The translations under genes and the position numbers were made by a program. The notes under the pieces are model-generated. The model ran no database searches. It worked only from the letters and a program-made list of their open reading frames with translations, and was not told the origin of the DNA. From positions 3,391,098 through 3,455,097 of the forward strand of contig CAVNZM010000011.1 of NCBI GenBank assembly GCA_963693365.1: DNA of 64,000 nt. The letters run 5' to 3'. The first letter of the stretch is position 1. Each line of letters begins with the position of its first letter. This document shows positions 44,964 to 64,000 of this stretch, in pieces. This stretch comes from Amoebidium appalachense. Taxonomy: Eukaryota > Protista > Ichthyosporea.

Positions 44964-45710
44964 TTAGTACATGCCGCGGGGCATGTCTTGTGCCGTGCCG
45001 GCATTCGTCTTTGGCATGCCTAATAAGCGGAACAGCAGATACCCCACGATGGCAAGCACCAAAATGACGGCGACGACCTTGAGCATGCCACCGAACGCAC
45101 CAAACATGCCGGCAAGACCCTCGCTCGACTGTTCGGTAATCTTCTCCAGCTTTGCAGCCGACTCCTGGACCGCCTTGTCGTTCATGATGTTCTCCGACAC
45201 GAGCTCGGCCAGCGCTTCGATGGTCTGTACCTGATTGATTTTCTTGATTTTCAGGTTTCTGTCGTCTTTGATCTCCATCTCCTGCTTCGCGTTCATCACG
45301 AGGGTCAGCGAGCTGTCAAACGCGCGTGTTGCATTGAAGGTGAAGTCGTTGATGGTCTGCGAGAACGTGTCGCTGGAGTTCTTGCCGCTGCTGCCCAGCT
45401 CGGTCTTCTGCTTGAGTTTCTCGTTGAGCTCCGCTTCCAACTTACTCTTGAACTCGTTCGTGCTCTGGGTCTTCTGTATGGCCTTGATGTTGATCTTGAC
45501 GCGCTGGAGCTGATTAATTTCGCCGAGGTCCGCACCCGTGAGACCCGAGATCGTCATCTTCTGGTCCGTCATGGTTGAGGCGCTTACGCTCTGATCAACC
45601 TTGATGCTCGTGGACACGGAATTGCGGACGATGTTTTGCAGCGTCGTGGTCGTGCTGTTGCCACAGTCGCCCATTCCGAGTATACACACCATCTTGTCGT
45701 CTGGATACAT
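44964..45710 (-). CDS. Virion membrane protein, poxvirus L1R/F9L-like myristoylated envelope protein family (start uncertain: 45710, 45692 or MG at 45674)
   Basis: MGDCGNSTTT.. followed by an S/T/N/Q-rich helical body with repeated Q-x-I-x-I / INQxQ motifs and one C-terminal TM (VVAVILVLAIVGYLLF). Confidence 0.75.
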   Translation of the reverse strand: MYPDDKMVCILGMGDCGNSTTTTLQNIVRNSVSTSIKVDQSVSASTMTDQKMTISGLTGADLGEINQLQRVKINIKAIQKTQSTNEFKSKLEAELNEKLKQKTELGSSGKNSSDTFSQTINDFTFNATRAFDSSLTLVMNAKQEMEIKDDRNLKIKKINQVQTIEALAELVSENIMNDKAVQESAAKLEKITEQSSEGLAGMFGAFGGMLKVVAVILVLAIVGYLLFRLLGMPKTNAGTAQDMPRGMY

Positions 45711-45774
45711 TCAGGCGCGGCGGACCAGCGGGCAGCGCCATTTTGCCTGTGAAATATTTTCTCCCCGCACGGTA

Positions 45775-46344
45775 ATGGACCGCTGTTCATCGAAGCGCAG
45801 CCTGAGCGACAGCGACGAGGACATGTGTGACACGGCGGAGACCAAGGCCCTGTGTCTGCCCAGGCCCCCACCCCCCGAGGTCACCCTGCCCACGGGTGTG
45901 GCCACAACCAACTACAGCAAGACCCAGATCCCACGCCCGGCCATGAACGAGATCAAAGCCGAGACCGACCCAGTCAAGGTTGAAGGACTGAACTTTATTG
46001 TTATGTCGTGTGCCGCCCAGGGCCTCGACCAGGTGACAAGCGACAACCAGTGCGGCATGAAGATCCGCGGGGCGTTCAACACCGTGGAGGAGGCCAACGC
46101 GCACGCCCGGGTGCTCCAGGAGAAGGACCCGTTCTGGGACATCTACGTGGCACCCATGTACGAATGGTTTGTGGTGCCGCCCAAGACGGTTATGTGCGAA
46201 GAGGTGGTGCATCCTAACAAGACCATGGAGGAGATCATGAACAACGAGCTGCGCCACAGGCACCAGCTGGCCGAAGGCCTAGAGACACGCATACAGGACG
46301 CAAAGAACGAACTGAACAAGCAGGACATGATGGTGGACTCCTAG
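45775..46344 (+). CDS. Conserved NCLDV protein (DUF5832-like)
   Basis: GMKIRGAFNTVEEANAHARVLQEKDPFWDIYVAPMYEW motif typical of this giant-virus family. ATG at 45775. Confidence 0.75.
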   Translation: MDRCSSKRSLSDSDEDMCDTAETKALCLPRPPPPEVTLPTGVATTNYSKTQIPRPAMNEIKAETDPVKVEGLNFIVMSCAAQGLDQVTSDNQCGMKIRGAFNTVEEANAHARVLQEKDPFWDIYVAPMYEWFVVPPKTVMCEEVVHPNKTMEEIMNNELRHRHQLAEGLETRIQDAKNELNKQDMMVDS

Positions 46345-46356
46345 ACACAGACCGGA

Positions 46357-47055
46357 CTACATGGATTCCTCGGGTGGGAGCAGGCAGACGCCGTTGGGAA
46401 GGTTGGTGCCGTCGGCCTCGTCGGGAGGTAGCACGCGGATCTGGAGGGCAAACAGGCGCACCTCGAGCTTGCCGTCGAACTCGACACGCTGGCCCTTGCG
46501 CTTGACGCCGTTGTAGATGCCCACGGACTTGATCTCGCCGGCGACGCGCACGTTGGGCAGGTTGGGGCTGTTGAACACGGCCAGCACCTGCTCGCGGTCC
46601 ATGGGCTTGCCGCTGGCGTCAAAGTAGTTGGCGCCGGAGTCGGGCACCAGGCGGAACTTGATGGACTCGATGCGGTCGACGAGGCACGAGCGCATGCGGT
46701 GGTTGATGGCCATCTCGTCGGGGATGGGGTCAAAGTCGGAGAACGCCAGCTCGGCGTTGGCCACGGCCCAGGAGACCACGGCGGCCTCGAGGTCGCGGAC
46801 GGCCGAAATAAAGCTGTCCAGCTGCTCCTGGCATCCACTTGAAGGCGCGTACTGCGAACAGTCCAGCGAGTTGTACTCCTCGTTGGGGGGGAACTTGCAC
46901 TTTAGCAGGGGGGTGTAGAAGCGGATGGGCTTGTTCTGGCGGCGCACAGGGAAGTAGATGGCGGTGTGGTTGCCTGCCCTGTTGCTCTCCAGCTTGGAGG
47001 GCCCGATGGTGATGTCGCGGCCATGGATGGCTTCTGTCCAGTGTGCGAACTGCAT
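46357..47055 (-). CDS. Putative NCLDV single-stranded DNA-binding protein (T7 gp2.5-like OB fold)
   Basis: PIRFYTPLLKCKFP, FISAVRDLEAAVV, IKSVGIY, LQIRV pattern with an acidic C-terminal tail. TATA box 42 nt upstream. Confidence 0.6.
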   Translation of the reverse strand: MQFAHWTEAIHGRDITIGPSKLESNRAGNHTAIYFPVRRQNKPIRFYTPLLKCKFPPNEEYNSLDCSQYAPSSGCQEQLDSFISAVRDLEAAVVSWAVANAELAFSDFDPIPDEMAINHRMRSCLVDRIESIKFRLVPDSGANYFDASGKPMDREQVLAVFNSPNLPNVRVAGEIKSVGIYNGVKRKGQRVEFDGKLEVRLFALQIRVLPPDEADGTNLPNGVCLLPPEESM

Positions 47056-47090
47056 GTTTGCGAGCGTGGAAATGAGGGCATGCGAGCTTC

Positions 47091-47099
47091 TTTTATACC
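47091..47099 (-). promoter_or_regulatory. TATA box (GGTATAAAA) upstream of the SSB gene
   Basis: The same motif precedes four other viral genes at a similar distance. Confidence 0.65.
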
Positions 47100-47114
47100 T
47101 TCTGGGGGGTGGCC

Positions 47115-47420
47115 TCAGGCCGGCATGCCGCCGCGCCACGCGTCCTGGAACGCCATTTCGTAGGTGACCGCGCGGTTCTTCTCCATCGGGTACGAATGGA
47201 TCATGTCCCTGGGCTCGAGACGCACGGCGTACATGGATGCCGGGACGGCCGTACGTGGAGTTGTGTAGCGGTTTGCGGCTTCGAGGGCGGTGTAGTCCAG
47301 GCGCGTGGAGCGCTTGCCCCTGTCACTCGTCGTGCTGCGCACCTGCACCTCGTTCATGACCATACCCATTGTAAGGTCGTTTTGGTTGGAGAGCAAAATG
47401 CGACCGTAAGAATCAGCCAT
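47115..47420 (-). CDS. Hypothetical viral protein
   Basis: 101-aa ATG ORF filling the gap between neighbours. AATATT motif 11 nt upstream. Confidence 0.6.
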   Translation of the reverse strand: MADSYGRILLSNQNDLTMGMVMNEVQVRSTTSDRGKRSTRLDYTALEAANRYTTPRTAVPASMYAVRLEPRDMIHSYPMEKNRAVTYEMAFQDAWRGGMPA

Positions 47421-47458
47421 GAGCTATGGCAATATTTTTTTTTTGGAGGGCCCCGCTA

Positions 47459-47704
47459 ATGGAGATCAACAACAACACGCTCTTGCTGCTGGCCATCGTT
47501 ACCATCTGGTACTACTGGTCGCAGCAACCGCAGGCGCCGCCGCCGCAGAGCACGTGTCCCCGGCATTCCAACTACGTGCCCGTGCCCATCGCCGTGGCGC
47601 CTGTCAAGGTGGACGTGGACCCCAGAAACGACATCACCAACACCGCCAAGGACGGCACCGACCTGCGGAACGTGCTCAACACCACGGTGAGCTACGTGAT
47701 CTAA
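47459..47704 (+). CDS. Small viral membrane protein (N-terminal TM)
   Basis: MEINNNTLLLLAIVTIWYYWS..; GC3-rich codons like the other viral genes. Confidence 0.65.
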   Translation: MEINNNTLLLLAIVTIWYYWSQQPQAPPPQSTCPRHSNYVPVPIAVAPVKVDVDPRNDITNTAKDGTDLRNVLNTTVSYVI

Positions 47705-47709
47705 ACATA

Positions 47710-48372
47710 TCAGAACGTGCCTGCCAAGACGTGTAGTGAGTCGATACCCCCGGCCCCGTAGGCCATGACGCCACGCCCACCCGCCGCCCACCCTTGCCCC
47801 CAGCTGTTCTGCACCAGCCAGCCGCCCCTGGCATCGTCCCAACCGAACACCATCACCGCATGCCCGCCCACGGGCCTTTCACCCGGATCCGGTGTCCACG
47901 TCTCCTCAGGGCCAAGCCGCTTCATCGAGCGGTGTTCGAGCACGTGCATGGCGACAGGCCCGTTCCTCTGTATTTCCCGCTTGATGGCACATGACCCGTG
48001 GCCCTGCATGTCCGTGAATGAACGCAGTTTGATTCGACCTTTGTCCGTGAGCACGCCCACGCGGCAGGCGTGCATGTGTGCCTTTACCAGCGTACCCCCC
48101 ATGCAACCCCTGTTTCCCAGTGTGTTTTGGAGAAGGTCGTCAGTGTCGACGGTCACCTGCTTGCCGAGCTGGACGGCGATGCGCCCATGGAGCGCAGCCG
48201 ACGTGGCGTGCGCCCAGCACGAGCCACACCGTGCCTGGTAGCCCACGGGGGCAACCACCGCGGGGGAAACGTCGAGCCAGCTGAACCGAGATGGAAGCGG
48301 GCGGCAGTATGAGCGCAGGAACAGAACCAGGGCGCACACGATCAGTGCGAGTAGGAGGAGGGGAACGGTCAT
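47710..48372 (-). CDS. Papain-like (C1A) cysteine protease with N-terminal signal/anchor
   Basis: QARCGSCWAH (catalytic Cys), GCMGG, GGHAVMVFGW (His), WLVQNSWG (Asn). Confidence 0.9.
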   Translation of the reverse strand: MTVPLLLLALIVCALVLFLRSYCRPLPSRFSWLDVSPAVVAPVGYQARCGSCWAHATSAALHGRIAVQLGKQVTVDTDDLLQNTLGNRGCMGGTLVKAHMHACRVGVLTDKGRIKLRSFTDMQGHGSCAIKREIQRNGPVAMHVLEHRSMKRLGPEETWTPDPGERPVGGHAVMVFGWDDARGGWLVQNSWGQGWAAGGRGVMAYGAGGIDSLHVLAGTF

Positions 48373-48409
48373 GTGTGACGGCACGTTTTTTATTTTGTCC
48401 CGTACTGTA

Positions 48410-48640
48410 ATGGATGAAGCAGCCAGCAACCCCAAGGACACCACCCCCAACGCACCCGAGCAGCAGCCAGACACCCCGACCGAAACCGCTGCCACCAGTC
48501 CCGTGCCAGCAAGGCAGGGCATGGTGGTACGGGCGGGGACACCGCAATTCTTCCTGATGGTGTTTCTTGTGACCGTTGCGGCGGCCATCGTGGGCACGCT
48601 GCTGGCTGGGTACATCGGTTCGCGGTTTTTGACGAGCTGA
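48410..48640 (+). CDS. Small viral tail-anchored membrane protein
   Basis: P/T-rich N-terminus and a C-terminal hydrophobic helix FFLMVFLVTVAAAIVGTLLAGYI. Confidence 0.6.
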   Translation: MDEAASNPKDTTPNAPEQQPDTPTETAATSPVPARQGMVVRAGTPQFFLMVFLVTVAAAIVGTLLAGYIGSRFLTS

Positions 48641-48675
48641 GGTGGTCAGGTTACGGATTTTGCCTGCTGCTGCCA

Positions 48676-48852
48676 ATGGCACGCCGGAGACACGGATTAC
48701 GGAGACGCACGCAGAGACGCCCACGTCGCGGAGGCTTGAAACGCGAACAACTACAAAAGGCATTTGAACTGGGGCTGCTCGATTCGCCTTACTCGCTGGG
48801 CATGGACCGCAGGTGTCTACGCGGGATTCTGGGGCCGTGTGGGTCCTCGTGA
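48676..48852 (+). CDS. Small Arg-rich viral protein (58 aa)
   Basis: Manual translation MARRRHGLRRRTQRRPRRGGLKREQLQKAFELGLL..; below the ORF-track cutoff; fills an otherwise empty gap. Confidence 0.5.
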   Translation: MARRRHGLRRRTQRRPRRGGLKREQLQKAFELGLLDSPYSLGMDRRCLRGILGPCGSS

Positions 48853-48876
48853 GCACGGAAACAACGCCAGATGTAG

Positions 48877-49182
48877 ATGCGAGGCAAGAGGGACAAGTGG
48901 CTGGCCCAGCAGCGCCAGCGCACACAGCACCAACTGTGGCAGCAGCGACAGCTGATGAAGCAACGCCTGCGCCGATACCGGGAAGTGGGACAACTGAAGG
49001 TGCGAAACAATATGGAGCTCAAGCGGATGTTAGCAACGCGCAAGAAGGCGCTCCGGATGCTCGATGAGGTCACGCGCGACATAGCGCGAATAAGGCACAC
49101 GTCGGCCGGTCCGTTGGTGACGGAGCTTGCCCTGCTGACGGAACAGGCACTTGCGCTGGACGCGCCCGGCCAAAATAAATAA
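48877..49182 (+). CDS. Hypothetical basic coiled-coil viral protein
   Basis: 101-aa ATG ORF in tandem with its neighbours. Confidence 0.55.
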   Translation: MRGKRDKWLAQQRQRTQHQLWQQRQLMKQRLRRYREVGQLKVRNNMELKRMLATRKKALRMLDEVTRDIARIRHTSAGPLVTELALLTEQALALDAPGQNK

Positions 49183-49193
49183 CTCAGGCATGT

Positions 49194-49742
49194 ATGGAAA
49201 GACACAGTGCAGTCGCCACAACGGCCGTGAGGCCACAGCCCCTCCCTGAACCTAGCTACAGCAGACAACAGCTGCGTGCGGAGCTCCGCGGCCTACGCCG
49301 GGATGCCATGCAGCGGAAACGACAGGAGCAGGAGGTGGCCCAAATGATACGACATTCCACAAACCGTGCCATCAAACGACTGAAGCGGTCAACGGCTCAG
49401 GCCTCGGGCACCGCTACGACGGGTCAGCGCATCAAGGACATCGAGATGCGCATACAGAGGGTGCTGCAAGGGGCTCGGTTGGTGGCCCGGGGTAGGGAGC
49501 GATTGGGGGAAGAGGCCAGTGACCAGCTTCTACGGATTTACCACGCAACCGACCGACTCATCCAGACGCGAAGAGCAAACGAGGCCGCGACGGCCAAGTG
49601 GCGGGGGCTCTATGAAGAGCTTGCAAAGCTGGGCGAGAAGGTAGGCAAGGCTTTGCAGGAGGATAGGCTGGCGGGATTGCAGGCGAGGGCCCAACAGGGT
49701 GGCACAGTCATAAATCAGGTATACGGTGGGCAGTCCGGTTAA
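49194..49742 (+). CDS. Hypothetical coiled-coil viral protein
   Basis: 182-aa ATG ORF, helical and R/Q/A-rich. Confidence 0.65.
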   Translation: MERHSAVATTAVRPQPLPEPSYSRQQLRAELRGLRRDAMQRKRQEQEVAQMIRHSTNRAIKRLKRSTAQASGTATTGQRIKDIEMRIQRVLQGARLVARGRERLGEEASDQLLRIYHATDRLIQTRRANEAATAKWRGLYEELAKLGEKVGKALQEDRLAGLQARAQQGGTVINQVYGGQSG

Positions 49743-49764
49743 AAATGTGGTGCGATCATATAAC

Positions 49765-51042
49765 ATGGCCGCAGTGGCGCAACCCGAACCGCCCAACTGG
49801 AGCAAGACACGGAAAGGAGGTCGGAAAAGTTATGCGTACTGGGAGGACCTCGACAAGCCCACGCAGAAGACGAAGAAGCAGGTGTTGAAGGGCCTGGAGC
49901 GGGCCGGCAAACGTGGAAAGGAGGAGGACCAGGAGATACAGAAGCGGATCAAGTACAAGGCGGACCTCGTGAAAAAGAAGTACAGCAAAGCACAGAAGCA
50001 ACAGGCCAAGGACAAGGTCCAGGCAAGTGAGCTTCTCGGATTTCAGGGGAAGAAGATTGCCGCAGTGGCACGGGGGGCAAGAACAGGCATCCCGCTAGCC
50101 AACCAGCAGGCGTTGTCGCGCATTGAACTCCAGTTGGCAAAGTTCAAGCTGCAGGCCAAGCAGTTGGCCAAGGACTACATCGACAAGAAGCTGGAGGTGG
50201 ACATCAGCAACTTGGGCAACGAGTACGACCAGCTCAAGACCCGCTACGAGAAGGCGGACGTCTCAGTCGACGACAGCAGCATAGGCTTTGTCACGAACAA
50301 GGCCACCGAAAAACTGCTCGCCCAGAAGCAACAGTTCAAGAAGAATCTGGATGCCGAGCTCCTTCTCAAGCGTATAGTGGGCTACAAGGCAGTTATTGGT
50401 GCATACCTTCGGTTCATAAAGGGCACCCGGAGCGAGCTGCTTAAGAACCCGGTGTACGTGAACTACTTTTCCAAGAAGACGCCGGATGAGCTGGGACACC
50501 TAAATCTGTTGTTTAACCGAGATGTCTATCTATTGCGGCAAGGGGATTTGAACAGCTTGGGTAATGCACTCATAGGGAAGCTGGTCGATACATCCAGTTT
50601 GCTGAGAAAGTGTGCGGCATGGACGAGCTCGATGTACAGCGCCGTGGATACCGCGCTGGGCACCAAACCCACGTTTGCACTGGTCAAAAAACTGGACAAC
50701 ACCAAGGACACTCTTTTTGATCTGGAGACGGAAATTGTGCGTCTCGCCAATCCCATTGCCCCCAGCAACCCCAACGACGAACCGGCGGACCTCGAGGACC
50801 TGGAAAATCGTTTCGAGGACATGGCAACGAATCTTGCTGGTGGGCGCGGGCTGGGTAACGTGGACATGAACGGCATCAATCAAGCCCTAGAAAACCAAGG
50901 GCAAGAGCCCATGGATATGGATAACCTGCGACAAGGGGTCGAAGGCGCAGACACAGGCGCAGCCGCGCAAAACATATCAGATTTGACGGCCCCGAATCAG
51001 CTTGAAACCATGCGGCAACGGCATGCAGCACCGGCAACCTAA
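49765..51042 (+). CDS. Hypothetical Lys-rich coiled-coil viral protein
   Basis: 425-codon open frame from ATG 49765; AATAAA overlaps the stop. Confidence 0.75.
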   Translation: MAAVAQPEPPNWSKTRKGGRKSYAYWEDLDKPTQKTKKQVLKGLERAGKRGKEEDQEIQKRIKYKADLVKKKYSKAQKQQAKDKVQASELLGFQGKKIAAVARGARTGIPLANQQALSRIELQLAKFKLQAKQLAKDYIDKKLEVDISNLGNEYDQLKTRYEKADVSVDDSSIGFVTNKATEKLLAQKQQFKKNLDAELLLKRIVGYKAVIGAYLRFIKGTRSELLKNPVYVNYFSKKTPDELGHLNLLFNRDVYLLRQGDLNSLGNALIGKLVDTSSLLRKCAAWTSSMYSAVDTALGTKPTFALVKKLDNTKDTLFDLETEIVRLANPIAPSNPNDEPADLEDLENRFEDMATNLAGGRGLGNVDMNGINQALENQGQEPMDMDNLRQGVEGADTGAAAQNISDLTAPNQLETMRQRHAAPAT

Positions 51043-51178
51043 TAAAACAAATGCGTACACAGTGTAAATGCGTGCTGTTTGGCTCCTTCTGTTTCTGTTG
51101 TTTGTCGGCGCTGCCGTCTTTATTTGGACTAGCCCGTGAAGGGCTCGGTTAAAATGATGTTTTCTTCATGCTCGTGGG

Positions 51179-51391
51179 CTACACAGCCTTTGTCTTTGCC
51201 AGCAACTGCTTGCGGGTCTTGCGCACCAATTTTAGGAAGTCCTTGCCCTCGTGTTCGGCCTGGTCGAGGCGGGCAAGTGCCGTCTTCATGGTCGACGGCT
51301 GCGAGGGGATGGCGGGGGCTTTGGCGCGTCTCGTGCGAGACTTCCTCTTGGACACGCCGATCTGCTCGAGGATTAGGTCGTCCAGTGTCAT
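51179..51391 (-). CDS. Small basic viral protein
   Basis: MTLDDLILEQIGVSKRKSRTRRAK.., 70 aa. Confidence 0.5.
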   Translation of the reverse strand: MTLDDLILEQIGVSKRKSRTRRAKAPAIPSQPSTMKTALARLDQAEHEGKDFLKLVRKTRKQLLAKTKAV

Positions 51392-51446
51392 TCTAACAGC
51401 ACTGCCGAATAAACGGGGAGCTGCCAACCGTTGGGCGCAAAACCAC

Positions 51447-51722
51447 CTACAGCCTCTCGAGTGCGGGAACCGCGTACTGGAGAAGTGCGTATATGATGCC
51501 CACGGCAATCAAGCTCCGCGTGATGTTCTGCTCGCCACGTCCCTGCCAGACCAGGAAGAACAGGAACACGTACTGCAGCCAGGGCCACTTGCGCCCCAGG
51601 CGGTGGAGCGAGTCGTTGGGTGGGTAGGCCATGTAGGCGGTCAACCCGGTGATGGTAGCCTGGAAAAGGGGGTTTCTCATGTATGCCCTCATCCCATAAT
51701 CGACACCCGTGGCCAAAGACAT
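51447..51722 (-). CDS. Small viral multi-pass membrane protein
   Basis: Hydrophobic segments flanking FLFFLVWQG; 91 aa. Confidence 0.6.
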   Translation of the reverse strand: MSLATGVDYGMRAYMRNPLFQATITGLTAYMAYPPNDSLHRLGRKWPWLQYVFLFFLVWQGRGEQNITRSLIAVGIIYALLQYAVPALERL

Positions 51723-51778
51723 TATACCCTACCACCAAATTATATCGAACGGCTGCTGTCTGGAGGCATTTTGGCGGT

Positions 51779-52312
51779 TTAGAGAATCTCGAGCCCGGCG
51801 TCGTCCAAGCGCATGCGTGCCACCCCCGTTGCCGAGGTGAACAGCAGTCCCGAGTCCCCGGCTGCCTCGATGCGCCAGCCGTTTGCAAAAACAAAGTGGC
51901 CGTCGAAATTGCCTACAAGCCTGTCCATCCACGGGCTCTGTATTCGTCCGTCACGTGTGACCGTGAGCACATCCTGGCCGTTACCTGTTCGTAGGCGCCC
52001 GCGCACGTGCGGATCGACATAGACCATAAGGTCCTTGATCTTGGGGAAATATGGCAGCGGCTCGTCCAGCACCAGCAGCCCCCGTGCGAGCTCAACCGAC
52101 TGGATCGTGCGTACGTGGTGAAGCACAGCCAGGGCCTGTCCTGGGTAGAAGAAGTACTCGGGGCTCGTGACGTTCCTGAACCTGAGGTTGCCCTTGTCCC
52201 AGCTGAACCCCCCCTGCACGCCTATGGAAAGCGGTTGGTCGGAGTCCCAGGCCATGCACCTGACCGTCGCGGTGTCCAGCTCGCATCCCGACATTATTGC
52301 GTGGCTCTGCAT
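51779..52312 (-). CDS. Hypothetical viral protein (beta-rich)
   Basis: 177-aa ATG ORF; no motif recognised; start may be at 52291. Confidence 0.6.
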   Translation of the reverse strand: MQSHAIMSGCELDTATVRCMAWDSDQPLSIGVQGGFSWDKGNLRFRNVTSPEYFFYPGQALAVLHHVRTIQSVELARGLLVLDEPLPYFPKIKDLMVYVDPHVRGRLRTGNGQDVLTVTRDGRIQSPWMDRLVGNFDGHFVFANGWRIEAAGDSGLLFTSATGVARMRLDDAGLEIL

Positions 52313-52811
52313 GGATAACCGCCATGATAACAGTCATTCGCGCGTCTTTGCGGCCGAGCTCGACGGGCAGGTGGGTGCGAGAGATGTGGCTCGACGGCTG
52401 CTGGAGAACGGGGCGAGGGCGGTATGCTCGGCAGGCAGTGAGGGTGGTGTTCGAGTGTGCGTGCTGTACCGGAGCTTTCGGGGCGCGGGCGAGGTGATGG
52501 GTGTGCTTGCGGCTTTCAAGTGCAGGAGGTGTGTGGTGCGACGTCCAACAAACGCGTTCAAGGACTGGCTGGAGGTCGTCTCGCTAAACCGTGACCCGTG
52601 CATGTACGTACAGAAGGGGGGAAAGATGCAGCTGAGCGAGGAGCTGTTTCCAAAAGAGCTTGAGTCCATGGGCTGCTACTGCGAGTACGTGGAGGCATGC
52701 CACTTCTACTCGCCCGTGCTCAAAAGACTGGATATGCCACTGCCCCGTCTGGGGGATATTTATTGCGAAGAGGAGACGGAGGCCAGCGAGGATGACGCGG
52801 CCGGTGACTGA
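52311..52811 (+). CDS. Hypothetical viral protein with acidic C-terminus
   Basis: 166-aa ORF from ATG 52311. Confidence 0.55.
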   Translation: MDNRHDNSHSRVFAAELDGQVGARDVARRLLENGARAVCSAGSEGGVRVCVLYRSFRGAGEVMGVLAAFKCRRCVVRRPTNAFKDWLEVVSLNRDPCMYVQKGGKMQLSEELFPKELESMGCYCEYVEACHFYSPVLKRLDMPLPRLGDIYCEEETEASEDDAAGD

Positions 52812-55523: not shown

Positions 55524-55533
55524 TGTTGAGGTC

Positions 55534-55711
55534 CATCGTTTATGCACGCGCGGTGTTTTATTTGAGTGGTGTGAACACAATATACTTGCAATATTGACTC
55601 CTGTGGCAGGTCCACATCGTTTATGCGTGGTGTTTTATTTGAGTGTTGTGTATTTCAATAAACGGACAAAATTAAACAATATGCACAATGAACACAATAT
55701 ACTTGCAATAT
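55534..55711. repeat. Imperfect direct duplications in the convergent 3' intergenic region
   Basis: catcgtttatgc..ggtgttttatttgagtg occurs twice (~55534, ~55615) and tgaacacaatatacttgcaatat twice (~55572, ~55689). Confidence 0.8.
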
Positions 55712-55737
55712 CCGTGGTATAGAATTAAGATGGGTGC

Positions 55738-57036
55738 TCAGGAAAATCTTAATGAGAGCATCCCGCCACTGATGCTCACTAGGTTGTGACCTCTGGCATA
55801 TACCCAGAAGTCCACGGTGCCGCTGAGGGACTCGTGAAGCTCCAGGTTCAGGTCAATCGTGTCGATGCGGGAGAAGTTCGTGCTGCCTGTGGGCTGGATG
55901 GAGTCTTCGGGCTGGAGGGCATAGGGGATCATGAACATCTTGAGCGTAGGGGCACGGGTGTGGTACTTCTGGACCAGCACCTTGTGCGAGAACAGCCCGC
56001 TGTAGTTGTACTGCATGCCGGTGTTGTTGTACTTGACGTCGATCTTCTGGATGGGTAGGTACAGCGGGTTGTTGGGGCTCTTGCCAGGCGAGGCAAAGTT
56101 GAAGAAGTCGTTCTTGCCGGGCTCGTTGTTGCGTGTGCGGGGCTGGCACACGATGAGCAGCTCCTTGACAGGGAAGCCGAAGTTGAGCTGCTGCGTGAGG
56201 GTAGCCTTCTCGTTGGGCCTGCTGTTGACGTTGGAGCTGAACATCTTCTCCTGCCACAGGTCCACGAGGTAGTCGTGGCGCTGGGCCTGGGCCCACATGG
56301 CACGTTCCTGCTCGTCCACGAAGATGTACTCGACGATGATGCTGCTGTCGGAAATCTTGCCACCATGAGCGTCGTTGGTGGAGCTGGAGGGCTTCTGGTC
56401 GCCGACGTCGTTGATGAGGTCACGCAGGGGCTTGGTGTCGATGTCGATGCGCACGGTGTGGAACTGCAGGGCGACAATGGGCAGGGCAGCACCATACCTC
56501 CTGTTGAACCAGAACTGCAGGGGAAAGAAGTACTCCATCTCGTGGTTGGCCCACTCGCGCAGCTGGCTCACATGATCGGCCTTGCCAATGGCGATGCCCA
56601 GCCCCTTGCCAGGGGGTGTCTCGATGTCCTCGAGCAGGGCGAGAAGACGGCCCACGTGCTGGTCGATGCGGTATGTCCCCACGTTCAGCTCGATGCGGTT
56701 GAAGAGGGCAAAGGGCAGCATGTTGACAAAGTGGGCGTCGTAGGGAAGGGGGCCAATCGAGCCGTTGGAGACGGCGTTGGGTGGCCCACGCTTAAGAGCG
56801 CCTACCTTGAAGTGGATCCAAAGGTCCTTGATGAGGTCTCCGGAACGACTAATCTCGCAGTTGCAGCCGGTGGCGCCGTAGTCCAGGGCGGTCTGGAAGT
56901 TGACCCTAAAGAACTCAATGGAGAAGTTGCTGATCTGCGCATACTTGCTGCGGAACAGGGTCTTGGTGGGTTTGAAGGTCAGAACGGAATCCTGAACGCC
57001 CTTGGACACCAGCTGCACAATCGCCGAGCTAGACAT
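55738..57036 (-). CDS. MCP: NCLDV double jelly-roll major capsid protein
   Basis: N-terminus IVQLVSKGVQDSVLTFKP..FRSKY..NFSIE, SGDLI, FPLQFWF, ALPIVALQF, FPVKEL, YALQPE..QPTGSTNFSRID, NLVSISGGM. Confidence 0.97.
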   Translation of the reverse strand: MSSSAIVQLVSKGVQDSVLTFKPTKTLFRSKYAQISNFSIEFFRVNFQTALDYGATGCNCEISRSGDLIKDLWIHFKVGALKRGPPNAVSNGSIGPLPYDAHFVNMLPFALFNRIELNVGTYRIDQHVGRLLALLEDIETPPGKGLGIAIGKADHVSQLREWANHEMEYFFPLQFWFNRRYGAALPIVALQFHTVRIDIDTKPLRDLINDVGDQKPSSSTNDAHGGKISDSSIIVEYIFVDEQERAMWAQAQRHDYLVDLWQEKMFSSNVNSRPNEKATLTQQLNFGFPVKELLIVCQPRTRNNEPGKNDFFNFASPGKSPNNPLYLPIQKIDVKYNNTGMQYNYSGLFSHKVLVQKYHTRAPTLKMFMIPYALQPEDSIQPTGSTNFSRIDTIDLNLELHESLSGTVDFWVYARGHNLVSISGGMLSLRFS

Positions 57037-57940: not shown

Positions 57941-57969
57941 CGTGGCCATTTTATGGATGAGACATGTAA

Positions 57970-58776: not shown

Positions 58777-58804
58777 TCGCTCCATTTATTCGGGGCCATA
58801 CCCA

Positions 58805-59191: not shown

Positions 59192-59378
59192 AGCATACGC
59201 GCCGTCCTGTATTTCACGTCCGACTTGCCAGCCAGATACAGGTGAACCTACCACCTTTTCCTAAACTTGCCAACATGACCACGGGTCATGAAAGGAGCTA
59301 GGCTAGTGGCGGTCATGCGGTTACAAGAAATATCATTGTAGCAGTAGCCCGCATGCAAACGTTATGTCCATACAAGTA

Positions 59379-59759
59379 ATGTCTCGACCCAACCTCAAAT
59401 CGCGATGCTGGGGCCCGCACTTCTGGAAAGTCATCCATGCTGTGACCCTGGGCTACCCGGACAACCCCACACCGCGCGTCAAGGAGCAGTACGAAGGCTT
59501 CTTCAACTCGTTGGTGAACGTTCTTCCATGCCGGGCGTGCCGTGGACACTTTGCCAAACTCATACGGCACTCCAGATGCAAGCTTGGCCGGCGTATCCTG
59601 CGGAACAGGAATGCGCTGTCCAAATGGGGCGTGAGGGTTCACAACGCCGTGAACCAGCGCAAGAAGAAGCCGGCGGTGCGGCCCAGCGAGGCCCTGAAAC
59701 CCTACGAGGCCTGGATGGTCAAGCCACGCCCTGGTTCGCAGCCCAGTGCCGAACGATAG
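59379..59759 (+). CDS. Erv1/Alr-family FAD-linked sulfhydryl oxidase (poxvirus E10R-like)
   Basis: WGPHFWKVIH, LPCRACRGHF (CxxC), HNAVN motifs. Confidence 0.93.
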   Translation: MSRPNLKSRCWGPHFWKVIHAVTLGYPDNPTPRVKEQYEGFFNSLVNVLPCRACRGHFAKLIRHSRCKLGRRILRNRNALSKWGVRVHNAVNQRKKKPAVRPSEALKPYEAWMVKPRPGSQPSAER

Positions 59760-60423
59760 TGGCCAGGTGCTGGATGTATGCGCCGGGATGCAAATCGTTC
59801 TTTGTGTAGTTGCAGGTCTTGCAGCAGGGCACGCTGTTGCTCTCGGTGTACCCCACGGCCGGATACAGCCGGTCGACGCCGTTGGACTGGTCCAGGCCGC
59901 AGTAGAAGCAGGGCTCCCTGCGAATGGCGTCAAACTGCTTTCGCGTGAGCGTGAACACGGACGAAGGGCAGCGCCGGCCATTTTCTGTGTCGCAGCGCTT
60001 TCGGGCGCTGCACCTGTACGTGTTGTAGTTTGTGCTGTATGCGCGCGATGACGGGGGCTGCCTGTACGCCCTGCGAGTGGCAAGGGCCTTTGCGAGCCGC
60101 TTGACGCCAGCAGCCGAGCGCCCCAGCGCGCGTTTGACCAGCGGGCAGTGCAACAGCGTGTGTGCGGCGAGGGCGGCGAGCTGCGTGGTGCGCAGGCCGT
60201 GGCGGATCCGGTGGCAGACGGTGCACACGGGACGCACGTTCCCGTGGACGTAGCCGCGCTTGTAGAGGCACAGTGCCACGTTACGGTGGGTCCGCTCGGC
60301 CTCGGCGCGGTTGCACACCTGGCACGGCCGCTTGAACAATTCCGCCAGGGTGGTGGGCGACAACTCGATGGGCAGCTTCTTGTTGGCGGCGTTGGCCCTA
60401 AGACTGGCCACAAACTGCTCCAT
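59719..60423 (-). CDS. HNH-type endonuclease with two Zn-binding modules
   Basis: PCQVC..GYVHGNVRPVCTVCH and PCFYCG..NGVDRL..GYTESNSVPCCKTCNYTK. Confidence 0.8.
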   Translation of the reverse strand: MEQFVASLRANAANKKLPIELSPTTLAELFKRPCQVCNRAEAERTHRNVALCLYKRGYVHGNVRPVCTVCHRIRHGLRTTQLAALAAHTLLHCPLVKRALGRSAAGVKRLAKALATRRAYRQPPSSRAYSTNYNTYRCSARKRCDTENGRRCPSSVFTLTRKQFDAIRREPCFYCGLDQSNGVDRLYPAVGYTESNSVPCCKTCNYTKNDLHPGAYIQHLATIVRHWAANQGVA

Positions 60424-60441
60424 GTTAAACCCAACAATAAA

Positions 60442-60744
60442 TCAACCGGTGACGAACACACGCGGCCCATCTGTTGCGACCACCACTCCCAGCGGGGCGC
60501 ACAAACCCGCCACCCAGGACGCGTACTCGGGCGTGGCGTGCAGCAGCAGCAGCCGCGGCCTACCCCCTCCCCGTGCGCGCTCAAGGATGCCCAGCAGTCC
60601 CGGCACCCAGCTGTGCACGTACCCCGGCCCCACGGCGGCCTCGATGCCCAGCCGTGCACAGGAGGCCCTTAGGAGCGTCCACTTGCGCATGGGGAGCACA
60701 AACATGCCGCAGGGGATGATGTGGTCGACATGCCTTGCCTCCAT
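60442..60744 (-). CDS. Hypothetical viral protein
   Basis: 100-aa ORF from ATG 60744 filling the gap. Confidence 0.45.
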   Translation of the reverse strand: MEARHVDHIIPCGMFVLPMRKWTLLRASCARLGIEAAVGPGYVHSWVPGLLGILERARGGGRPRLLLLHATPEYASWVAGLCAPLGVVVATDGPRVFVTG

Positions 60745-60812
60745 TTGCGGGAGCCGGGGGGGGTCGCGGGTATAAATACCCTCGACGCCACCACACCCGG
60801 CCAGTCTCGACA

Positions 60813-61064
60813 ATGGTGGCCTACGACGAATTCGAACTTCTGGCCTACCTCGGCACCCCTGTGCCAAGTGAAACGGAGTCGGAGGACGAGAGGGAGCCCC
60901 TGCCGCCCCCCCTTGATCAAGAGTTTGAGCTGTTGGTGCACATCTTCCAGGAAATCAAGTACCGATCGGCCACCACCGGCCTGTTTGACCGACTCACCCT
61001 CAAGCATTTCTACACACTGGCCCACAACACGTCAAGCTGCTTCACGTCGGCACGTTTGCGGTGA
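60813..61064 (+). CDS. Small acidic viral protein
   Basis: MVAYDEFELL..; GGTATAAATA 42 nt upstream. Confidence 0.6.
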   Translation: MVAYDEFELLAYLGTPVPSETESEDEREPLPPPLDQEFELLVHIFQEIKYRSATTGLFDRLTLKHFYTLAHNTSSCFTSARLR

Positions 61065-61599
61065 GGCTGTCGAGGATGCTGAAACACAGCTGACCGAGTT
61101 TGGCCGGGTCCCGGTTCTCAAGCAGGGCGCGGGCGTCATCGTCGGTCATGTTTGAGGTGGCGGCCTTCGCGATGTTGAAGATGTTCGACATGGTGGCCGG
61201 GTCGAGTGGCGGGAGCTGGCCGGCATGGTCCAGGACCTGCGTGGACGGGACTGGTGCAGCTGTCGCACCACTGTACACGACCAGGCGCTCGACATACTCG
61301 ACTACGGCAGCCTTGGTAATGGGGTGCATGCGAGTCCATGCCGCGTGCAGCCCCATCTGTTGGAGTGGAGAGTGGTCGCCCTCAAGAAACGACCAGTCCT
61401 TGGCGGCGACCTGCGGCATGAACGGCGCTATCTGAGCCGCAAAGACCTGAGGGGGCATGTCCGGGCTGACTTCAGCTGTGGAGGCCGCGATGGACCTTGC
61501 CTGGGCGATCTCCGGAAGGTCGGGGAACGCGGTCTGGAGCTTGGCGCAAAGCTCATCGAGGCATGCATTAAACGAGGCAGCTTCCATTAGCAATGCCAT
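61042..61599 (-). CDS. Conserved NCLDV hypothetical protein
   Basis: FN....EL...L...FP..F...I.P....KD..F..W..M....K..V..Y...L pattern, as I recall it from giant-virus conserved ORFs. Confidence 0.65.
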   Translation of the reverse strand: MALLMEAASFNACLDELCAKLQTAFPDLPEIAQARSIAASTAEVSPDMPPQVFAAQIAPFMPQVAAKDWSFLEGDHSPLQQMGLHAAWTRMHPITKAAVVEYVERLVVYSGATAAPVPSTQVLDHAGQLPPLDPATMSNIFNIAKAATSNMTDDDARALLENRDPAKLGQLCFSILDSLTANVPT

Positions 61600-61652
61600 A
61601 CAAAAAAAGGGCGCAGGGGATGTTGAGAAAAAATGATCAGCCCGTCATACAG

Positions 61653-61865
61653 ATGGCAACAACACGCAGACGACACCACCGGCGGCGCGGCGCGTCAGTA
61701 CCGGGAGAAAACAAGGCGCTTGCGCTTCTGACCAACCAGATCCAAGAGACTAGTCCCGGATGTATGCCCCGGGGGTTTGCGAGAACCATCGCGGCTGCAA
61801 AGCTCGGCAACATGCGGCGTCACATTCGCCGACGACTGTGCGAGGCGTGGCGCAGCAAGTGGTAG
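61653..61865 (+). CDS. Small Arg-rich viral protein
   Basis: MATTRRRHHRRRGAS..MRRHIRRRL. Confidence 0.5.
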   Translation: MATTRRRHHRRRGASVPGENKALALLTNQIQETSPGCMPRGFARTIAAAKLGNMRRHIRRRLCEAWRSKW

Positions 61866-61885
61866 ACACGACAAGACACAAGCAT

Positions 61886-62872
61886 CTACACGGTCATGAG
61901 ACAACGCGGGGTTGTCCGTGTTTTAATAAACGACCAGCCCAGCTTTGCACAGATGGCCTGCCATGTGCGGTCGTGGTCACAGAGTTTGTCTGCAGACTTT
62001 AGCAGGGGTATGTGGGGTAGATAGGCGCCCCACTGGAGCAGCTCGCAGAACTTGAACAGCAGGTAGTTGACCGAGAGGAAGTTGATCCTGTCATCGCACG
62101 CGTCCTTGAACACGCCCTGCGTCTGCATGAACATGTCGCGCAGGCGGTCCAGCTGCTCGGGGTTGAACTGCGGGCACTGAATGCCAAATGCGCTCTGCAT
62201 GATGCTGGGGATGTTGCGGTAGTAGCGGTTGAGCTTGCGGCTTCTCAGGAGCTTCTTGACATGTGCGTGCGTGATGCGTTCCATGGGGTAGTGCAGCGTG
62301 GCCGCGTCCCTGACAAACTCGATGACGTCAACCGGTATGTCTGTGGTCTCCTTGCCCTGGAAGTGCACGAGCGTCTCGTTGAAATGGTTGAGCGGCTTGT
62401 ATACCTGTTGGCGCTGGCTGCGGGGTGGGGGCATCTTGAACACCGACTTGTTGAACTCACAGAACCCGGGCACGGCCTCACCGCACTCGTCGCACACGTA
62501 CATCTCCCTCATCTTGTCCAGCAGGCCGACGCCGCACGCGGGGCAGGGATCGGGCTCGCGGCGGGGAGCACGGTCCTGCACGTCCTCCACATGGGTCAGG
62601 TAGTCGCGATACACCTCCCTCCTCGAATCCCTGTCGCTGCACTCGTAGTGCTTAAGCATGTAGGGCAGGGTGTCGAGAAGGAACTCAACCTCCTCCTGGA
62701 CAACAGCGGCGTCGCCGATCCTGCGGCGCTTGGCAAACTCGGCCATGCGCACGTCCACACGCGACTCCATGTCGTTCTGGGCCACGTGCTGCACATACTG
62801 CTTGTCTGCCTCGCAGCCCTTCTTGGACCGGTAGGGCGCGCGCATCGGGCGCTTGCGCTCGTCCGCTGACAT
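61886..62872 (-). CDS. VLTF3: Viral late transcription factor 3 (poxvirus A2L-like VLTF3)
   Basis: CPAC..CDECG zinc ribbon, YKPLNHFNETLVHFQGKE, LNRYYRNIP, RINFLSVNYLLFKFCELL, LLKS..KL..HD..W..IC..LGW.F. Confidence 0.95.
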   Translation of the reverse strand: MSADERKRPMRAPYRSKKGCEADKQYVQHVAQNDMESRVDVRMAEFAKRRRIGDAAVVQEEVEFLLDTLPYMLKHYECSDRDSRREVYRDYLTHVEDVQDRAPRREPDPCPACGVGLLDKMREMYVCDECGEAVPGFCEFNKSVFKMPPPRSQRQQVYKPLNHFNETLVHFQGKETTDIPVDVIEFVRDAATLHYPMERITHAHVKKLLRSRKLNRYYRNIPSIMQSAFGIQCPQFNPEQLDRLRDMFMQTQGVFKDACDDRINFLSVNYLLFKFCELLQWGAYLPHIPLLKSADKLCDHDRTWQAICAKLGWSFIKTRTTPRCLMTV

Positions 62873-62925
62873 GCTAGTTGGCAAGAAAGTGTGCCGCGGA
62901 CGCGCCTTATATACCTGCGGGAGCC

Positions 62926-63618
62926 CTAGTTCACGCTGTCGGCCTGGATGATGAACAGTATGGGGAAGGTACTCCCTGGGATGCTTTCAGCGAACGAGCC
63001 CGTTGCGGCGCTCAAACCCAGGTTTGTGGCCTGCCCAGACCCTTGAGAAGCGACGCTTGTTCCCAGCAACTCGATGATTTCAGTGCCGTGGGCAACAGAC
63101 TCGCGGCTGTAGTCGGGGGGGGGAGGTGCCCGACCCGGCTTAACGCCACAGTAGCCCAAGACGTTCTTTGGGGTGGCCAACACGCATTCACCGCCTACGC
63201 TTACGGTGCCAGGCCCGCAGCTTCCCCCTTTCCGCGAGCTCGAGCGAACACGCATGGTTGCGGCAGGTCTGGACTTGGGGGCGGCAGTGGGCTTCCTGGT
63301 TGCCATTGCCTTGGTTGGGGCTTGAACGGGTTTAGAAACCGGCCTCCTGGAGGCGGCCTTGGGGGCAACGCTCACCCGCATGGTCCCCATTGGTTTCAGA
63401 GGACGCATGGCGGTCGCAAGCTTGGGTTTCTTTGGGGGGTGGCCGACGGTCGCATGCTTGGCTGGTGCCTTGCGCTTGGCGCTGTCACCTGGCATCCCCA
63501 GACGCCCAGCACGACCGATGAGCGACTCGAGCGCCTTCACCTCCAACTCCAGGTTACTGGTGGACACGGGAACAGGCAGCACGCGTGATGCTTCCGTCAG
63601 TTTAGTGTTCCTGCGCAT
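62926..63618 (-). CDS. Basic K/P/A-rich viral protein with a CGPGT..C motif
   Basis: 230-aa ATG ORF with a low-complexity basic middle region. Confidence 0.6.
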   Translation of the reverse strand: MRRNTKLTEASRVLPVPVSTSNLELEVKALESLIGRAGRLGMPGDSAKRKAPAKHATVGHPPKKPKLATAMRPLKPMGTMRVSVAPKAASRRPVSKPVQAPTKAMATRKPTAAPKSRPAATMRVRSSSRKGGSCGPGTVSVGGECVLATPKNVLGYCGVKPGRAPPPPDYSRESVAHGTEIIELLGTSVASQGSGQATNLGLSAATGSFAESIPGSTFPILFIIQADSVN

Positions 63619-63641
63619 TTATTTGTGGACAAGAAAAGATA

Positions 63642-64000
63642 TCACACACAGCGCCGGGCAACGTTGGCCAGCTTCGTTTGCTCCGCATGGAAGAGAGCCA
63701 GCTGTGCATCGTAGTCGAGGGTCTCGTTTGTGCGCACGTTACATCTCTGGAAGAGTATGTAGCGTACACGCCGGTAGAGGTCCTCGCTGAACAGCGTGAT
63801 GTCCAGTGGAAGCACGCCGTACTCCCCAAACCATGACAGGATGTCCTTGTCCAACTCGTTGGGCTGATACCAGTCAGGAAGCGCCATCAGCGTGTCGGGG
63901 GTTTTCTTTCGCACCAGCTCCTCCAACTCTATAAGGTAGGTCTGGATCTTGGACGCCTCGTCCAGGCCGATTCGCCACTTGCACGCGTACTTATCCAGGT
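63642..64000 (-). CDS. Unknown viral protein, paralog family member 3 (5' partial)
   Basis: Open from the window end: LDKYACKWRIGLDEASKIQTYL..FSEDLYRRVR..QLALFH, matching the second repeat of the 57-58 kb paralogs. Confidence 0.65.
   Translation of the reverse strand, partial: LDKYACKWRIGLDEASKIQTYLIELEELVRKKTPDTLMALPDWYQPNELDKDILSWFGEYGVLPLDITLFSEDLYRRVRYILFQRCNVRTNETLDYDAQLALFHAEQTKLANVARRCV

Follow-up and report, generated by a model that had tools for sequence, protein, structure and literature searches.

The window analysed here, a stretch of 64,000 nt from Amoebidium appalachense, consists of host DNA joined to a block that is supported as an intact core-gene segment of a giant DNA virus (Nucleocytoviricota). 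The explanation that we favor, at close to an even chance of being right, is that this left-truncated, medusavirus-related block was recently captured by end-joining in a host repeat, and that it came from a virus persisting outside the chromosomes, with tens of copies for each host genome. Elements of this kind are already known; it is the anomaly in copy number that had gone unreported.

Between 44,964 and 64,000, 29 intronless ATG-started ORFs (median 185 aa, GC3 0.65-0.90), one of them open at the window end, make up 92% of the sequence (Table 1), which bears out the preliminary description of about 28 packed intronless ORFs over about 19 kb. Likewise, the poly-G/C and CA tracts said to vanish past ~44,640 do so: G/C runs of at least 10 nt occur 2-11 times per 2 kb on the host side, the last at 44,639 with none beyond, and the CA/TG tracts end at the same position. 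CpG observed/expected ratios are 0.43-0.76 in host bins versus 0.90-0.98 in viral bins, and 0.74 versus 0.95 when repeats are masked. That is, a gene-dense intronless block with a composition unlike that of its flank, a hallmark of GEVEs, is present.

The curated Pfam cut-off was exceeded by six of the 30 window proteins scanned (capsid, VLTF3, Evr1_Alr, Peptidase_C1, DUF5832 and, three times, DUF4379), and the block contains both a nucleocytoviricota-type NCLDV capsid (PF16903, PF04451) and VLTF3 (PF04947). From the core-gene set proposed earlier, MCP, VLTF3, Erv1 and the protease were upheld by Pfam; support for the YqaJ-like and L1R-like genes is weaker. The L1R-like ORF, likely a virion entry protein, gave no Pfam or PDB match; in the ESM Atlas (0.94, 216 of 256 features, recognition score under the tool's threshold) it matched clusters that are 98-100% viral (Nucleocytoviricota) and 13% L1R_F9L. 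The proposed SSB was not confirmed: the candidate had no match in Pfam, PHROG or NCBIfam, and its model (pLDDT 40) had none in BFVD at E 0.001 and a best Z of 4.8 in PDB. The HNH protein matched a PDB HNH endonuclease (E 0.007); a PacI-like identity was weighed for it and not demonstrated. The hallmark genes are free of premature stops, as had been stated: MCP aligns over 94-100% of its own length to relatives of 407-426 aa and VLTF3 over 97% of its length, while the translation of the protease, whose start most likely lies at 48,372 (220 aa), has an N-terminal hydrophobic anchor and keeps the Q/C, H and N catalytic motifs. A usable family match in Pfam, PHROG or NCBIfam was absent for 20 of the 29 viral ORFs; this is more than the half first given as ORFans, a status that these family scans do not confer, homologues having been sought for MCP and VLTF3 only. 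Family B polymerase, A32 packaging ATPase and D5 primase-helicase, already said to be missing from the window, were found in none of the 30 proteins scanned, and the element runs past the window. Furthermore, the 19.8 kb of visible viral DNA contains no histone or RNA polymerase gene and the window no JmjC or DNMT gene, tRNA and Rfam scans of the window gave 0 matches, and exact-match look-ups of 11 window proteins against a protein collection gave none.

Table 1. Features at the host boundary and in the viral block (window coordinates)
Feature	Position	Strand	Evidence and remarks
Host interspersed repeat, cut at 44,160	43,422-44,160		94.8% identity over 751 bp to copy at 35,341-34,595
Variable multi-copy left segment	44,161-44,963	+	KilA-N ORF starting at 44,191, truncated at break point 44,569 (Pfam E 7.2e-5, 23 bits vs cut-off 23.8); G run, 44,616-44,639; KilA-N-like repeats; 56-nt repeat, 44,310/44,858, 95% identical
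L1R/F9L-like membrane protein	44,964-45,674	-	N-terminal MG, C-terminal hydrophobic segment
DUF5832 protein	45,775-46,344	+	Pfam E 8.7e-18
232-aa protein, candidate "SSB"	46,357-47,055	-	TATA box 42 nt upstream
Two small divergent ORFs	47,115-47,704	- (101 aa), + (about 81-92 aa)	ORF list; hydrophobic N-terminus in + strand ORF; no family match in Pfam or PHROG
Papain-family cysteine protease	47,710-48,372	-	Pfam Peptidase_C1 E 2.9e-20
Eight ORFs, 70-425 aa	48,410-52,811		ORF list, GC3 bias; no usable match in Pfam, PHROG or NCBIfam, nor in ESM Atlas for 425-aa ORF
YqaJ-like recombinase/exonuclease	52,760-53,626	-	Pfam YqaJ E 0.037 (under cut-off); PHROG RecE-like exonuclease E 3.9e-4; TATA box 61 nt upstream
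Three DUF4379 zinc fingers and probable PD-(D/E)XK nuclease	53,823-55,523	+	Pfam DUF4379 E 9.4e-44; PDDEXK_5 E 0.042; TATA box 46 nt upstream
Double jelly-roll major capsid protein (MCP), 432 aa, intact	55,738-57,036	-	Pfam Capsid_N and Capsid_NCLDV
Two paralogous ORFs, 301 and 268 aa	57,035-58,776	+	31% identical to each other (238 aa aligned, E 2.5e-26)
Erv1/Alr sulfhydryl oxidase with intact CxxC	59,364-59,759	+	Pfam Evr1_Alr E 2.8e-20
HNH/endonuclease VII-type nuclease	59,719-60,423	-	PHROG E 2.3e-14; PDB HNH endonuclease E 0.007
Four small ORFs	60,442-61,865		TATA box upstream of 60,813-61,064; no family match in Pfam, PHROG or NCBIfam
Late transcription factor VLTF3, intact	61,886-62,872	-	Pfam Pox_VLTF3 E 1.4e-33; TATA box 41 nt upstream
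Two ORFs, last one running off window	62,926-64,000	-	Element extends further right

Ten relatives, most of them unnamed, share 77-80% identity with the capsid; one is encoded by a 183-kb contig deposited under Daphnia sinensis, and VLTF3 is 51% identical to a protein on that same contig (183,011 bp), which likewise carries both genes, 17 accession numbers apart (KAI9549643.1 and KAI9549660.1). Taken together, this contig and the unnamed metagenomic relatives P0001, P0002, P0012-P0013, P0015-P0018 and P0020 match the window at 77-80% for the capsid and 50-51% for VLTF3, and in a tree of 160 capsids, no named virus among them, the window MCP and these relatives form one clade with support 1.0. 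They are viruses distinct from that of the window, and the contig may belong to Daphnia or to a passenger; the literature yielded no paper linking Daphnia sinensis with Nucleocytoviricota and nothing relevant for Daphnia and medusavirus capsids. The nearest relatives of the block sit on the 183-kb and a 122-kb contig, which lends no support to the compact lineage envisaged earlier. The structural model of the capsid (pLDDT 77) matched PDB entries too and had its best BFVD match in the MCP of Medusavirus stheno T3, at 27% identity and E 5.7e-33, ahead by little (5.1e-30) in a single Foldseek ranking, with 432 aa in the window versus 523 aa. Going by this modeled fold, the virus is likely related to medusaviruses. 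Similarity was lower elsewhere: in IMG/VR, a single MCP query returned five pattern matches and 0 relatives and an alignment query 11 loci with best segments of 23-29%; the best 80 of 239 MCP relatives in JGI metagenomes were 22-32% identical; and MCP was the sole match when 30 window ORFs were compared by tblastn with 91 IMG/VR and JGI loci. Near-identity of the MCP to a described virus, which would have spoken against novelty, was thus not seen. The lineage is possibly undescribed as regards formal naming alone, no named virus exceeding 27%, but giant-virus insertions in Amoebidium have already been described (PMC11244446).

One of the main results concerns depth in public sequencing runs (numbered X1 to X22 where cited). 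In X13 and X16, which represent one sample, the depth of viral contigs exceeded that of unique host contigs 72- to 128-fold, a ratio between single contigs, whose depth is not equal to copy number. In X13 the unique flank contigs stood at 14.9-20.6 versus 1,481-1,912 for viral contigs, and in X16 those identical to the window at 35.5 and 40.2 versus 2,638-3,555. A single-copy provirus should have the depth of host single-copy DNA, so the excess rules out a lone provirus of that kind. A sharp coverage difference across the junction had been named beforehand as a refuting sign and was found; an assembly chimera is not thereby shown, since the junction is resolved to the base and has microhomology. 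The viral pool is near-clonal: its full-depth contigs reach 3,649 bp without branching, and the run contigs share 99.9% identity with the window copy, which differs at 14 of 10,083 bases from seven listed long viral contigs of X1 and at 8 of 8,750 from eight of X9. This identity, together with the absence of CpG decay, supports the recent integration suggested earlier. In 20 of the 24 listed runs (six samples, 2011 to 2024), half or more of the words of 43,000-52,000 were present.

A serious possibility, although we hold it below an even chance, is that all copies are chromosomal. An insertion burst or a tandem or segmental amplification would then have produced about 70-130 near-identical copies, mostly collapsed or unplaced and silenced by methylation, and the element would be an amplified ordinary GEVE. 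The ratio of virus to host repeat is similar in X9 (2024) and X13 (2011), and so is the share of a minority form at 55,106, about 22% in both (depths there of 22, 130 and 390 in X1, X9 and X13 versus about 60, 600 and 1,700 for the core; the 3′ part of the DUF4379 ORF is carried by a minority of copies). Such stability over 13 years is the pattern expected of chromosomal copies and argues against an episomal reading. Moreover, two forms occur near 50:50 at 49,295, 53,059 and 56,638 in X13. Most copies continue leftwards into sequence other than that of the window copy, diverging from it at 44,569/44,570, 44,709 and 44,929 (an X9 contig at depth 503 has 926 different bases left of 44,929), and varied left flanks are expected of separate insertions. 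For Amoebidium, moreover, 90 insertions on chromosomes and 42 unplaced ones have been counted, and no particles were seen (PMC11244446). Against this, X1 has abundant virus and hardly any host repeats: the viral block has a depth of 40-75, the adjacent host repeat 2-6 and the repeat-rich bin 38,001-38,667 a depth of 0, whereas in X13 the host repeat (3,944 at 43,754-43,856) is deeper than the virus, so that the virus:host ratio shifts at least 6-fold. X1 could be an enrichment library, e.g. for methylated, CpG-rich DNA. CpG decay, again, is lacking, and copies about 99.9% alike contrast with insertions described as divergent and incomplete (PMC11244446, in the part available). Furthermore, with 87 copies the 18 measured ORFs would amount to some 1,570 genes. 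That is more than half of the approximately 2,835 GEVE genes implied for A. appalachense by 737 being 26% (PMC11244446), and so many genes from one element fit poorly with insertions that the paper calls partial and divergent.

Contigs of the host repeat match the window up to 44,160 and viral contigs from 44,159 on, placing the junction at 44,159-44,160 with a 2-bp microhomology, from which we propose capture by end-joining; the viral DNA therefore starts at about 44,160 and not at 44,964 as first described. At 44,160 the alignment with the second copy of the host repeat breaks, and both this copy and the run contigs, as loose ends, extend past the break point. No terminal inverted repeat or target-site duplication was seen at the left viral end. 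Splicing of the host genes, noted from the outset, is borne out by an X10 contig that skips 39,345-40,283 with GT..AG ends. The host side also bears a claudin-family gene and animal-like GrpE exons, of which 35 of 52 and 23 of 49 residues are identical to mitochondrial GRPEL1 chains, in a comparison that listed no fungal chain. Among 90 candidates, the GrpE exon was closest to a beetle sequence, at 59%. CGC/GCG depletion, a possible footprint of Amoebidium methylation, was not found in the window (CGC observed/expected 0.76 versus 0.62-0.79 in other contexts). The core block of the window copy is intact, but its left end is cut, so that the copy falls short of a whole genome.

It is improbable, though deserving mention, that nothing was inserted and that a chimeric long read stitched abundant free virus to a host contig. 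The depth jump of about 90-fold at the boundary would agree with this, as would the position of the break within a several-hundred-copy host repeat (depth in the thousands in X13 and X16) and the fact that none of the listed run contigs bridges 44,160; however, one single-copy junction among about 90 viral copies is easily missed among those contigs. The join has neither a long shared repeat nor a gap, the left segment is rearranged in a way peculiar to the window copy, this copy shows several private bases relative to the runs (47,776, 56,170 and 57,115), and its left-flank allele occurs as such in X1 and X16, all of which weighs against a chimera. Finally, a small polinton-like virus of the adintovirus or mriyavirus type (30-45 kb) multiplying as a large transposon is very improbable: the window genes are short and dense, and Amoebidium adintoviruses have VLTF3 and 44 copies (PMC11244446), but such viruses have a polinton capsid, protein-primed polymerase, integrase and terminal repeats, whereas the window capsid matches Nucleocytoviricota Pfam models and is predicted to fold like giant-virus capsids, the 19.8 kb of viral DNA lack a protein-primed polymerase, an integrase and terminal inverted repeats, the block has Erv1, L1R-like, DUF5832 and protease genes, and the relatives lie on 122- and 183-kb contigs.

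Under the favored reading of recent capture from an extrachromosomal virus, the virus would replicate in the nucleus using host RNA polymerase II. Each of the five TATAWAW sites in the viral block precedes a start on its own strand by 41-61 nt, a zone to which 2.6% of positions belong, and these TATA boxes precede DNA-metabolism genes and VLTF3, which suggests nuclear replication and use of the host polymerase. A late-promoter TAA motif occurs at 5 of 28 starts versus 18 of 618 background ATGs, a hint only, with two starts mis-set. Among the runs carrying the sequence, none was listed as RNA. Run X10 contains viral contigs of uneven depth (8-604) beside the spliced host contig, and carried-over high-copy DNA could explain them; in X22, RNA by guess, 44,208-46,600 is without cover. 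Contigs cannot rank genes by expression, and these X10 and X22 signals were kept out of the evidence. Partial insertions such as that of the window might arise when the host repairs its double-strand breaks by ligating in pieces of broken viral genomes. The excess copies might be episomes or virions, by analogy with skiaviruses and the Allomyces Cali8 virus. CG methylation may then have silenced the inserted copy, with too little time since for CpG decay. A bolder version, possible but distinctly tentative, is that the virus is an unnamed family-level, nucleus-dependent lineage with a distant relationship to medusaviruses, with about 90 replicating extrachromosomal genomes per host genome in long-kept cultures of a unicellular animal relative, seeding new insertions.

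Giant-virus insertions are known in many protists. If a near-clonal pool at roughly 90 copies is real, it would be the missing donor for the Amoebidium insertions and would bring into culture a capsid clade so far known from unnamed contigs alone. As a replicating extrachromosomal virus it would also be the first giant virus known to be live in an ichthyosporean, and endogenisation could be followed while under way. Existing data would then allow a direct test of two questions: by what route giant viruses without an integrase get into host chromosomes (at this locus through microhomology), and if a live infection is subject to silencing. If all copies are chromosomal, the assembly undercounts the element many times over, which is of lesser import but still corrects the published picture.

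The window element fits the giant-virus insertions described in Amoebidium (PMC11244446). There, too, gene-dense intronless islands with VLTF3 and an NCLDV capsid form partial insertions in an intron- and repeat-rich genome; the likeness is one of description, not sequence, and the placement of those insertions beside Mamonoviridae (Medusavirus, Clandestinovirus) agrees with the best named match found here. The available text distinguishes at least six viral clades, without a complete genome, and reads the insertions as stochastic, methylation-silenced leftovers; microscopy by Sarre et al. 2024 revealed no particles, and the capsid was not seen to be reactivated (PMC11244446). No depth excess is reported in the main text as available, where "episom" and "extrachromosomal" occur 0 times, and among titles and abstract openings, subscription papers being outside the scope, no report of a free or high-copy Amoebidium giant virus was found. 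Medusavirus lacks RNA polymerase and relies on its host (PMC8557863), which matches what the window TATA boxes suggest, although its early promoters consist of a palindrome and a poly-A motif (PMC8557863) instead of a TATA box. Mamonoviridae have an amoeba host and genomes of 369-381 kb (10.64898/2026.07.28.741200); of their full histone set, the visible viral DNA of the window shows no gene. The window block carries MCP, VLTF3 and YqaJ-like genes; the five genes common to the Skiavirales-Manovirales clade include MCP, VLTF3 and YqaJ (10.64898/2026.07.28.741200). Skiaviruses (proposed Skiavirales, an MCP-A32-VLTF3 clade), sister to Mamonoviridae, are circular episomes in cultured thraustochytrids (10.64898/2026.07.28.741200). 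The matches obtained here included no identified skiavirus sequence. Furthermore, the Allomyces strain Cali8 has an integrated Mycodnaviridae genome with about 50-fold viral coverage (PMC13533422). Their hosts are different, thraustochytrids for skiaviruses and fungi for Mycodnaviridae (near Algavirales and Imitervirales), and the likeness is drawn from published descriptions; by this analogy, the window virus likely works as they do, as a persistent giant virus long unnoticed in a cultured microbial eukaryote.

Depth was compared on the two sides of the junction, as the preliminary description had proposed, here on assembled contigs of public sequencing runs. In run X16, unique host-flank contigs identical to the window had depths of 35.5 and 40.2, and the viral contigs 2,638-3,555; in X13, from the same sample, the values were 14.9-20.6 and 1,481-1,912. 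The resulting virus-to-host ratio of 72-128 compares single contigs within one sample, and summed contig depth is not itself a copy number, so that the reading in copies is ours; an excess of this size disagrees with a single-copy provirus. In X1 the virus had a depth of 40-75 and the adjoining host repeat 2-6, an excess that may reflect library enrichment, whereas in X13 the repeat was deeper than the virus. The virus-to-repeat ratios of X9 and X13 were alike, which argues against a fluctuating infection. Among the 24 runs listed, 20 held at least half of the words of 43,000-52,000 (six samples, three organism labels, 2011-2024), and the best-holding run may be the window's own sequence source. 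No such depth excess is reported in the consulted portion of Sarre et al. (PMC11244446) or in the literature listings surveyed on Amoebidium giant viruses and Daphnia relatives.

Viral copies form an almost clonal pool, with mismatches between the window and the seven long X1 viral contigs listed at 14 of 10,083 bases, and between the window and the eight listed for X9 at 8 of 8,750. The window has a few private bases relative to the runs, and several sites in X13 are split between two forms at close to 50:50. At ~47,435 the window differs from all four runs compared by a single inserted or deleted base within a stretch of T, probably a long-read consensus error. We favour, tentatively and with close to even confidence, a nuclear virus that persists at tens of copies and whose broken genomes are ligated into host breaks. 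That the copies are instead dozens of collapsed chromosomal insertions is a serious but lesser possibility. The host is probably Amoebidium, and for Amoebidium appalachense 132 giant-virus insertions, placed beside Medusavirus, are described (PMC11244446).

The junction itself lies further left than the 44,964 given initially, since viral run contigs align from 44,159, extending leftwards into other sequence, and the two window copies of a 740-bp host repeat (43,422-44,160 and 35,341-34,595, 94.8% identity) match until 44,160 and then part. In the public runs, host-repeat contigs continue beyond 44,160 as the second window copy does. This repeat is non-coding, present in several hundred copies and has an internal 18-bp inverted repeat (43,490/44,140); a second high-depth repeat (43,230-43,422) lies immediately to its left. 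The host and viral sides share two overlapping bases, and a join with 2-bp microhomology and without long homology is typical of end-joining repair. None of the run contigs listed spans 44,160, as an assembly chimera would have it, an explanation that we nevertheless consider unlikely. The ~800 bp to the right form a variable multi-copy segment, in which a KilA-N ORF is broken at 44,569 and other copies part from the window copy at 44,570, 44,709 and 44,929 (an X9 contig of depth 503 has 926 other bases left of 44,929). Because the other copies diverge leftward and the KilA-N ORF is broken, the window copy is a left-truncated piece of a larger entity and not a whole genome.

The sharp contrast described between the right third of the window and the remainder was borne out. 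Left of 44.2 kb, GC is ~0.50, CpG o/e 0.43-0.76 and G/C runs of at least 10 nt number 2-11 per 2 kb; right of 44,640, where such tracts had been said to end, GC is ~0.60, CpG o/e 0.90-0.98 and the window scan found no such run. The ~28 packed ORFs became 29, covering 92% of 44,964-64,000 (median 185 aa, high GC3). Six of 30 scanned proteins exceeded the Pfam cut-off, namely the NCLDV capsid, VLTF3, Erv1 and protease already named, the last of papain type, plus DUF5832 and a DUF4379 protein. YqaJ and KilA-N matches fell under it; PHROGs backed YqaJ and added an HNH nuclease, an L1R-like protein is a lead from the ESM Atlas, and the SSB label was unsupported by structure-model and fold searches. 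Within 53,823-55,730, only about one-fifth to one-third of copies carry the 3' part of the DUF4379 gene, which encodes the nuclease; an X10 contig leaves out 55,234-55,756, and direct repeats of 23 and 26 bp lie in the spacer that precedes the capsid gene. In this the region acts like a mobile insert with an endonuclease. Judged from its capsid and VLTF3 sequences, the element is a Nucleocytoviricota block, an assignment that stops short of Mamonoviridae membership; a polinton-like element is very improbable.

The capsid protein (MCP) shares 77-80% identity with ten proteins, one of them encoded by a contig of 183,011 bp in a Daphnia sinensis assembly, which also encodes the best VLTF3 match (51%). 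This contig, with the proteins P0003/P0022 (KAI9549643.1, KAI9549660.1), may be a near-complete relative of the window virus filed as animal DNA. Next come the relatives P0004/P0021 (46-47%, 122-kb contig) and P0025 (34-36%), the remaining matches having 26-37% (best 150 among 1.84 billion representatives); IMG/VR and JGI scans gave none above 32%. In a capsid phylogeny computed with FastTree under LG+G (160 capsids, 402 columns), leaving out four non-capsid proteins, two fragments and eight proteins above 620 aa, the window and its ten relatives group at support 1.0 and join P0004, P0021, P0025 and the further relative P0126 on a long stem. P0004 (122,362-bp ENA contig, 47%) is a second, more distant member of the same clade. 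The best BFVD match of the capsid model was Medusavirus stheno (27%), with mimivirid capsids narrowly behind.

The host part is eukaryotic and spliced, as its GrpE and claudin-family exons and reverse-transcriptase retroelement indicate (Table); a run contig skipping a 939-bp GT..AG intron confirmed the spliced genes noted beside the virus. The GrpE exons are 47-67% identical to mitochondrial GRPEL1 chains in the PDB, and the best database match of only 59% is a weak pointer away from well-sampled animals. The retroelement has a strong TpG excess (o/e 1.41) and a layout that, we presume, recalls DIRS/Ngaro tyrosine-recombinase retrotransposons. Another short host repeat is apparently common to 4,517-4,690 and 21,330-21,580, with near-identical translations. 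A CGC/GCG-specific footprint was looked for in the window and not found, a result that does not fit Amoebidium.

Table. Host-side features of the window
Feature	Position	Strand	Remarks
Mitochondrial GrpE gene, two exons, animal-like	15,779-15,940 and 16,627-16,788	+	
Claudin/PMP22-family gene, multi-exon, last host gene before virus	35,823-40,417	+	One intron confirmed by spliced contig
GC-rich retroelement	1-4,329	-	gag-like ORF 3,010-4,329; RVT_1 (Pfam E 3.5e-10); RNase H-like frame
Long open frame, 411 codons, several hydrophobic segments, no Pfam match	30,220-31,455	-	

Each of the five TATAWAW sites in the block is followed, at a distance of 41-61 nt, by a start on its own strand, a zone making up 2.6% of positions. 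The sites precede a 232-aa ORF, YqaJ, the DUF4379 nuclease, an 83-aa ORF and VLTF3; none precedes the capsid and membrane genes in the block. This placement suggests that host polymerase II would transcribe the early genes in the nucleus and that late genes would depend on viral factors. A nuclear virus maintained at tens of copies could shed broken genomes, which repair would ligate into host breaks.

PMC11244446 describes Amoebidium appalachense as an ichthyosporean from freshwater arthropod cuticle with an intron- and transposon-rich, CG-methylated genome. The anatomy of the block, its medusavirus affinity and its capsid relative in a water-flea assembly all agree with Amoebidium as the host, which we consider likely. 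If the host is indeed Amoebidium, the existence of the window insertion is probably covered in bulk by that study. Such endogenous elements of giant-virus origin have been described before, likely in the same host. Medusavirus has no RNA polymerase (PMC8557863), and a similar host-polymerase early reading may hold for the virus of the 19.8-kb gene block. Precedents for a persistent high-copy giant virus are the skiaviruses, circular episomes sister to Mamonoviridae and long overlooked in cultured thraustochytrids (10.64898/2026.07.28.741200), and Allomyces Cali8, with an integrated virus at 50-fold coverage (PMC13533422).
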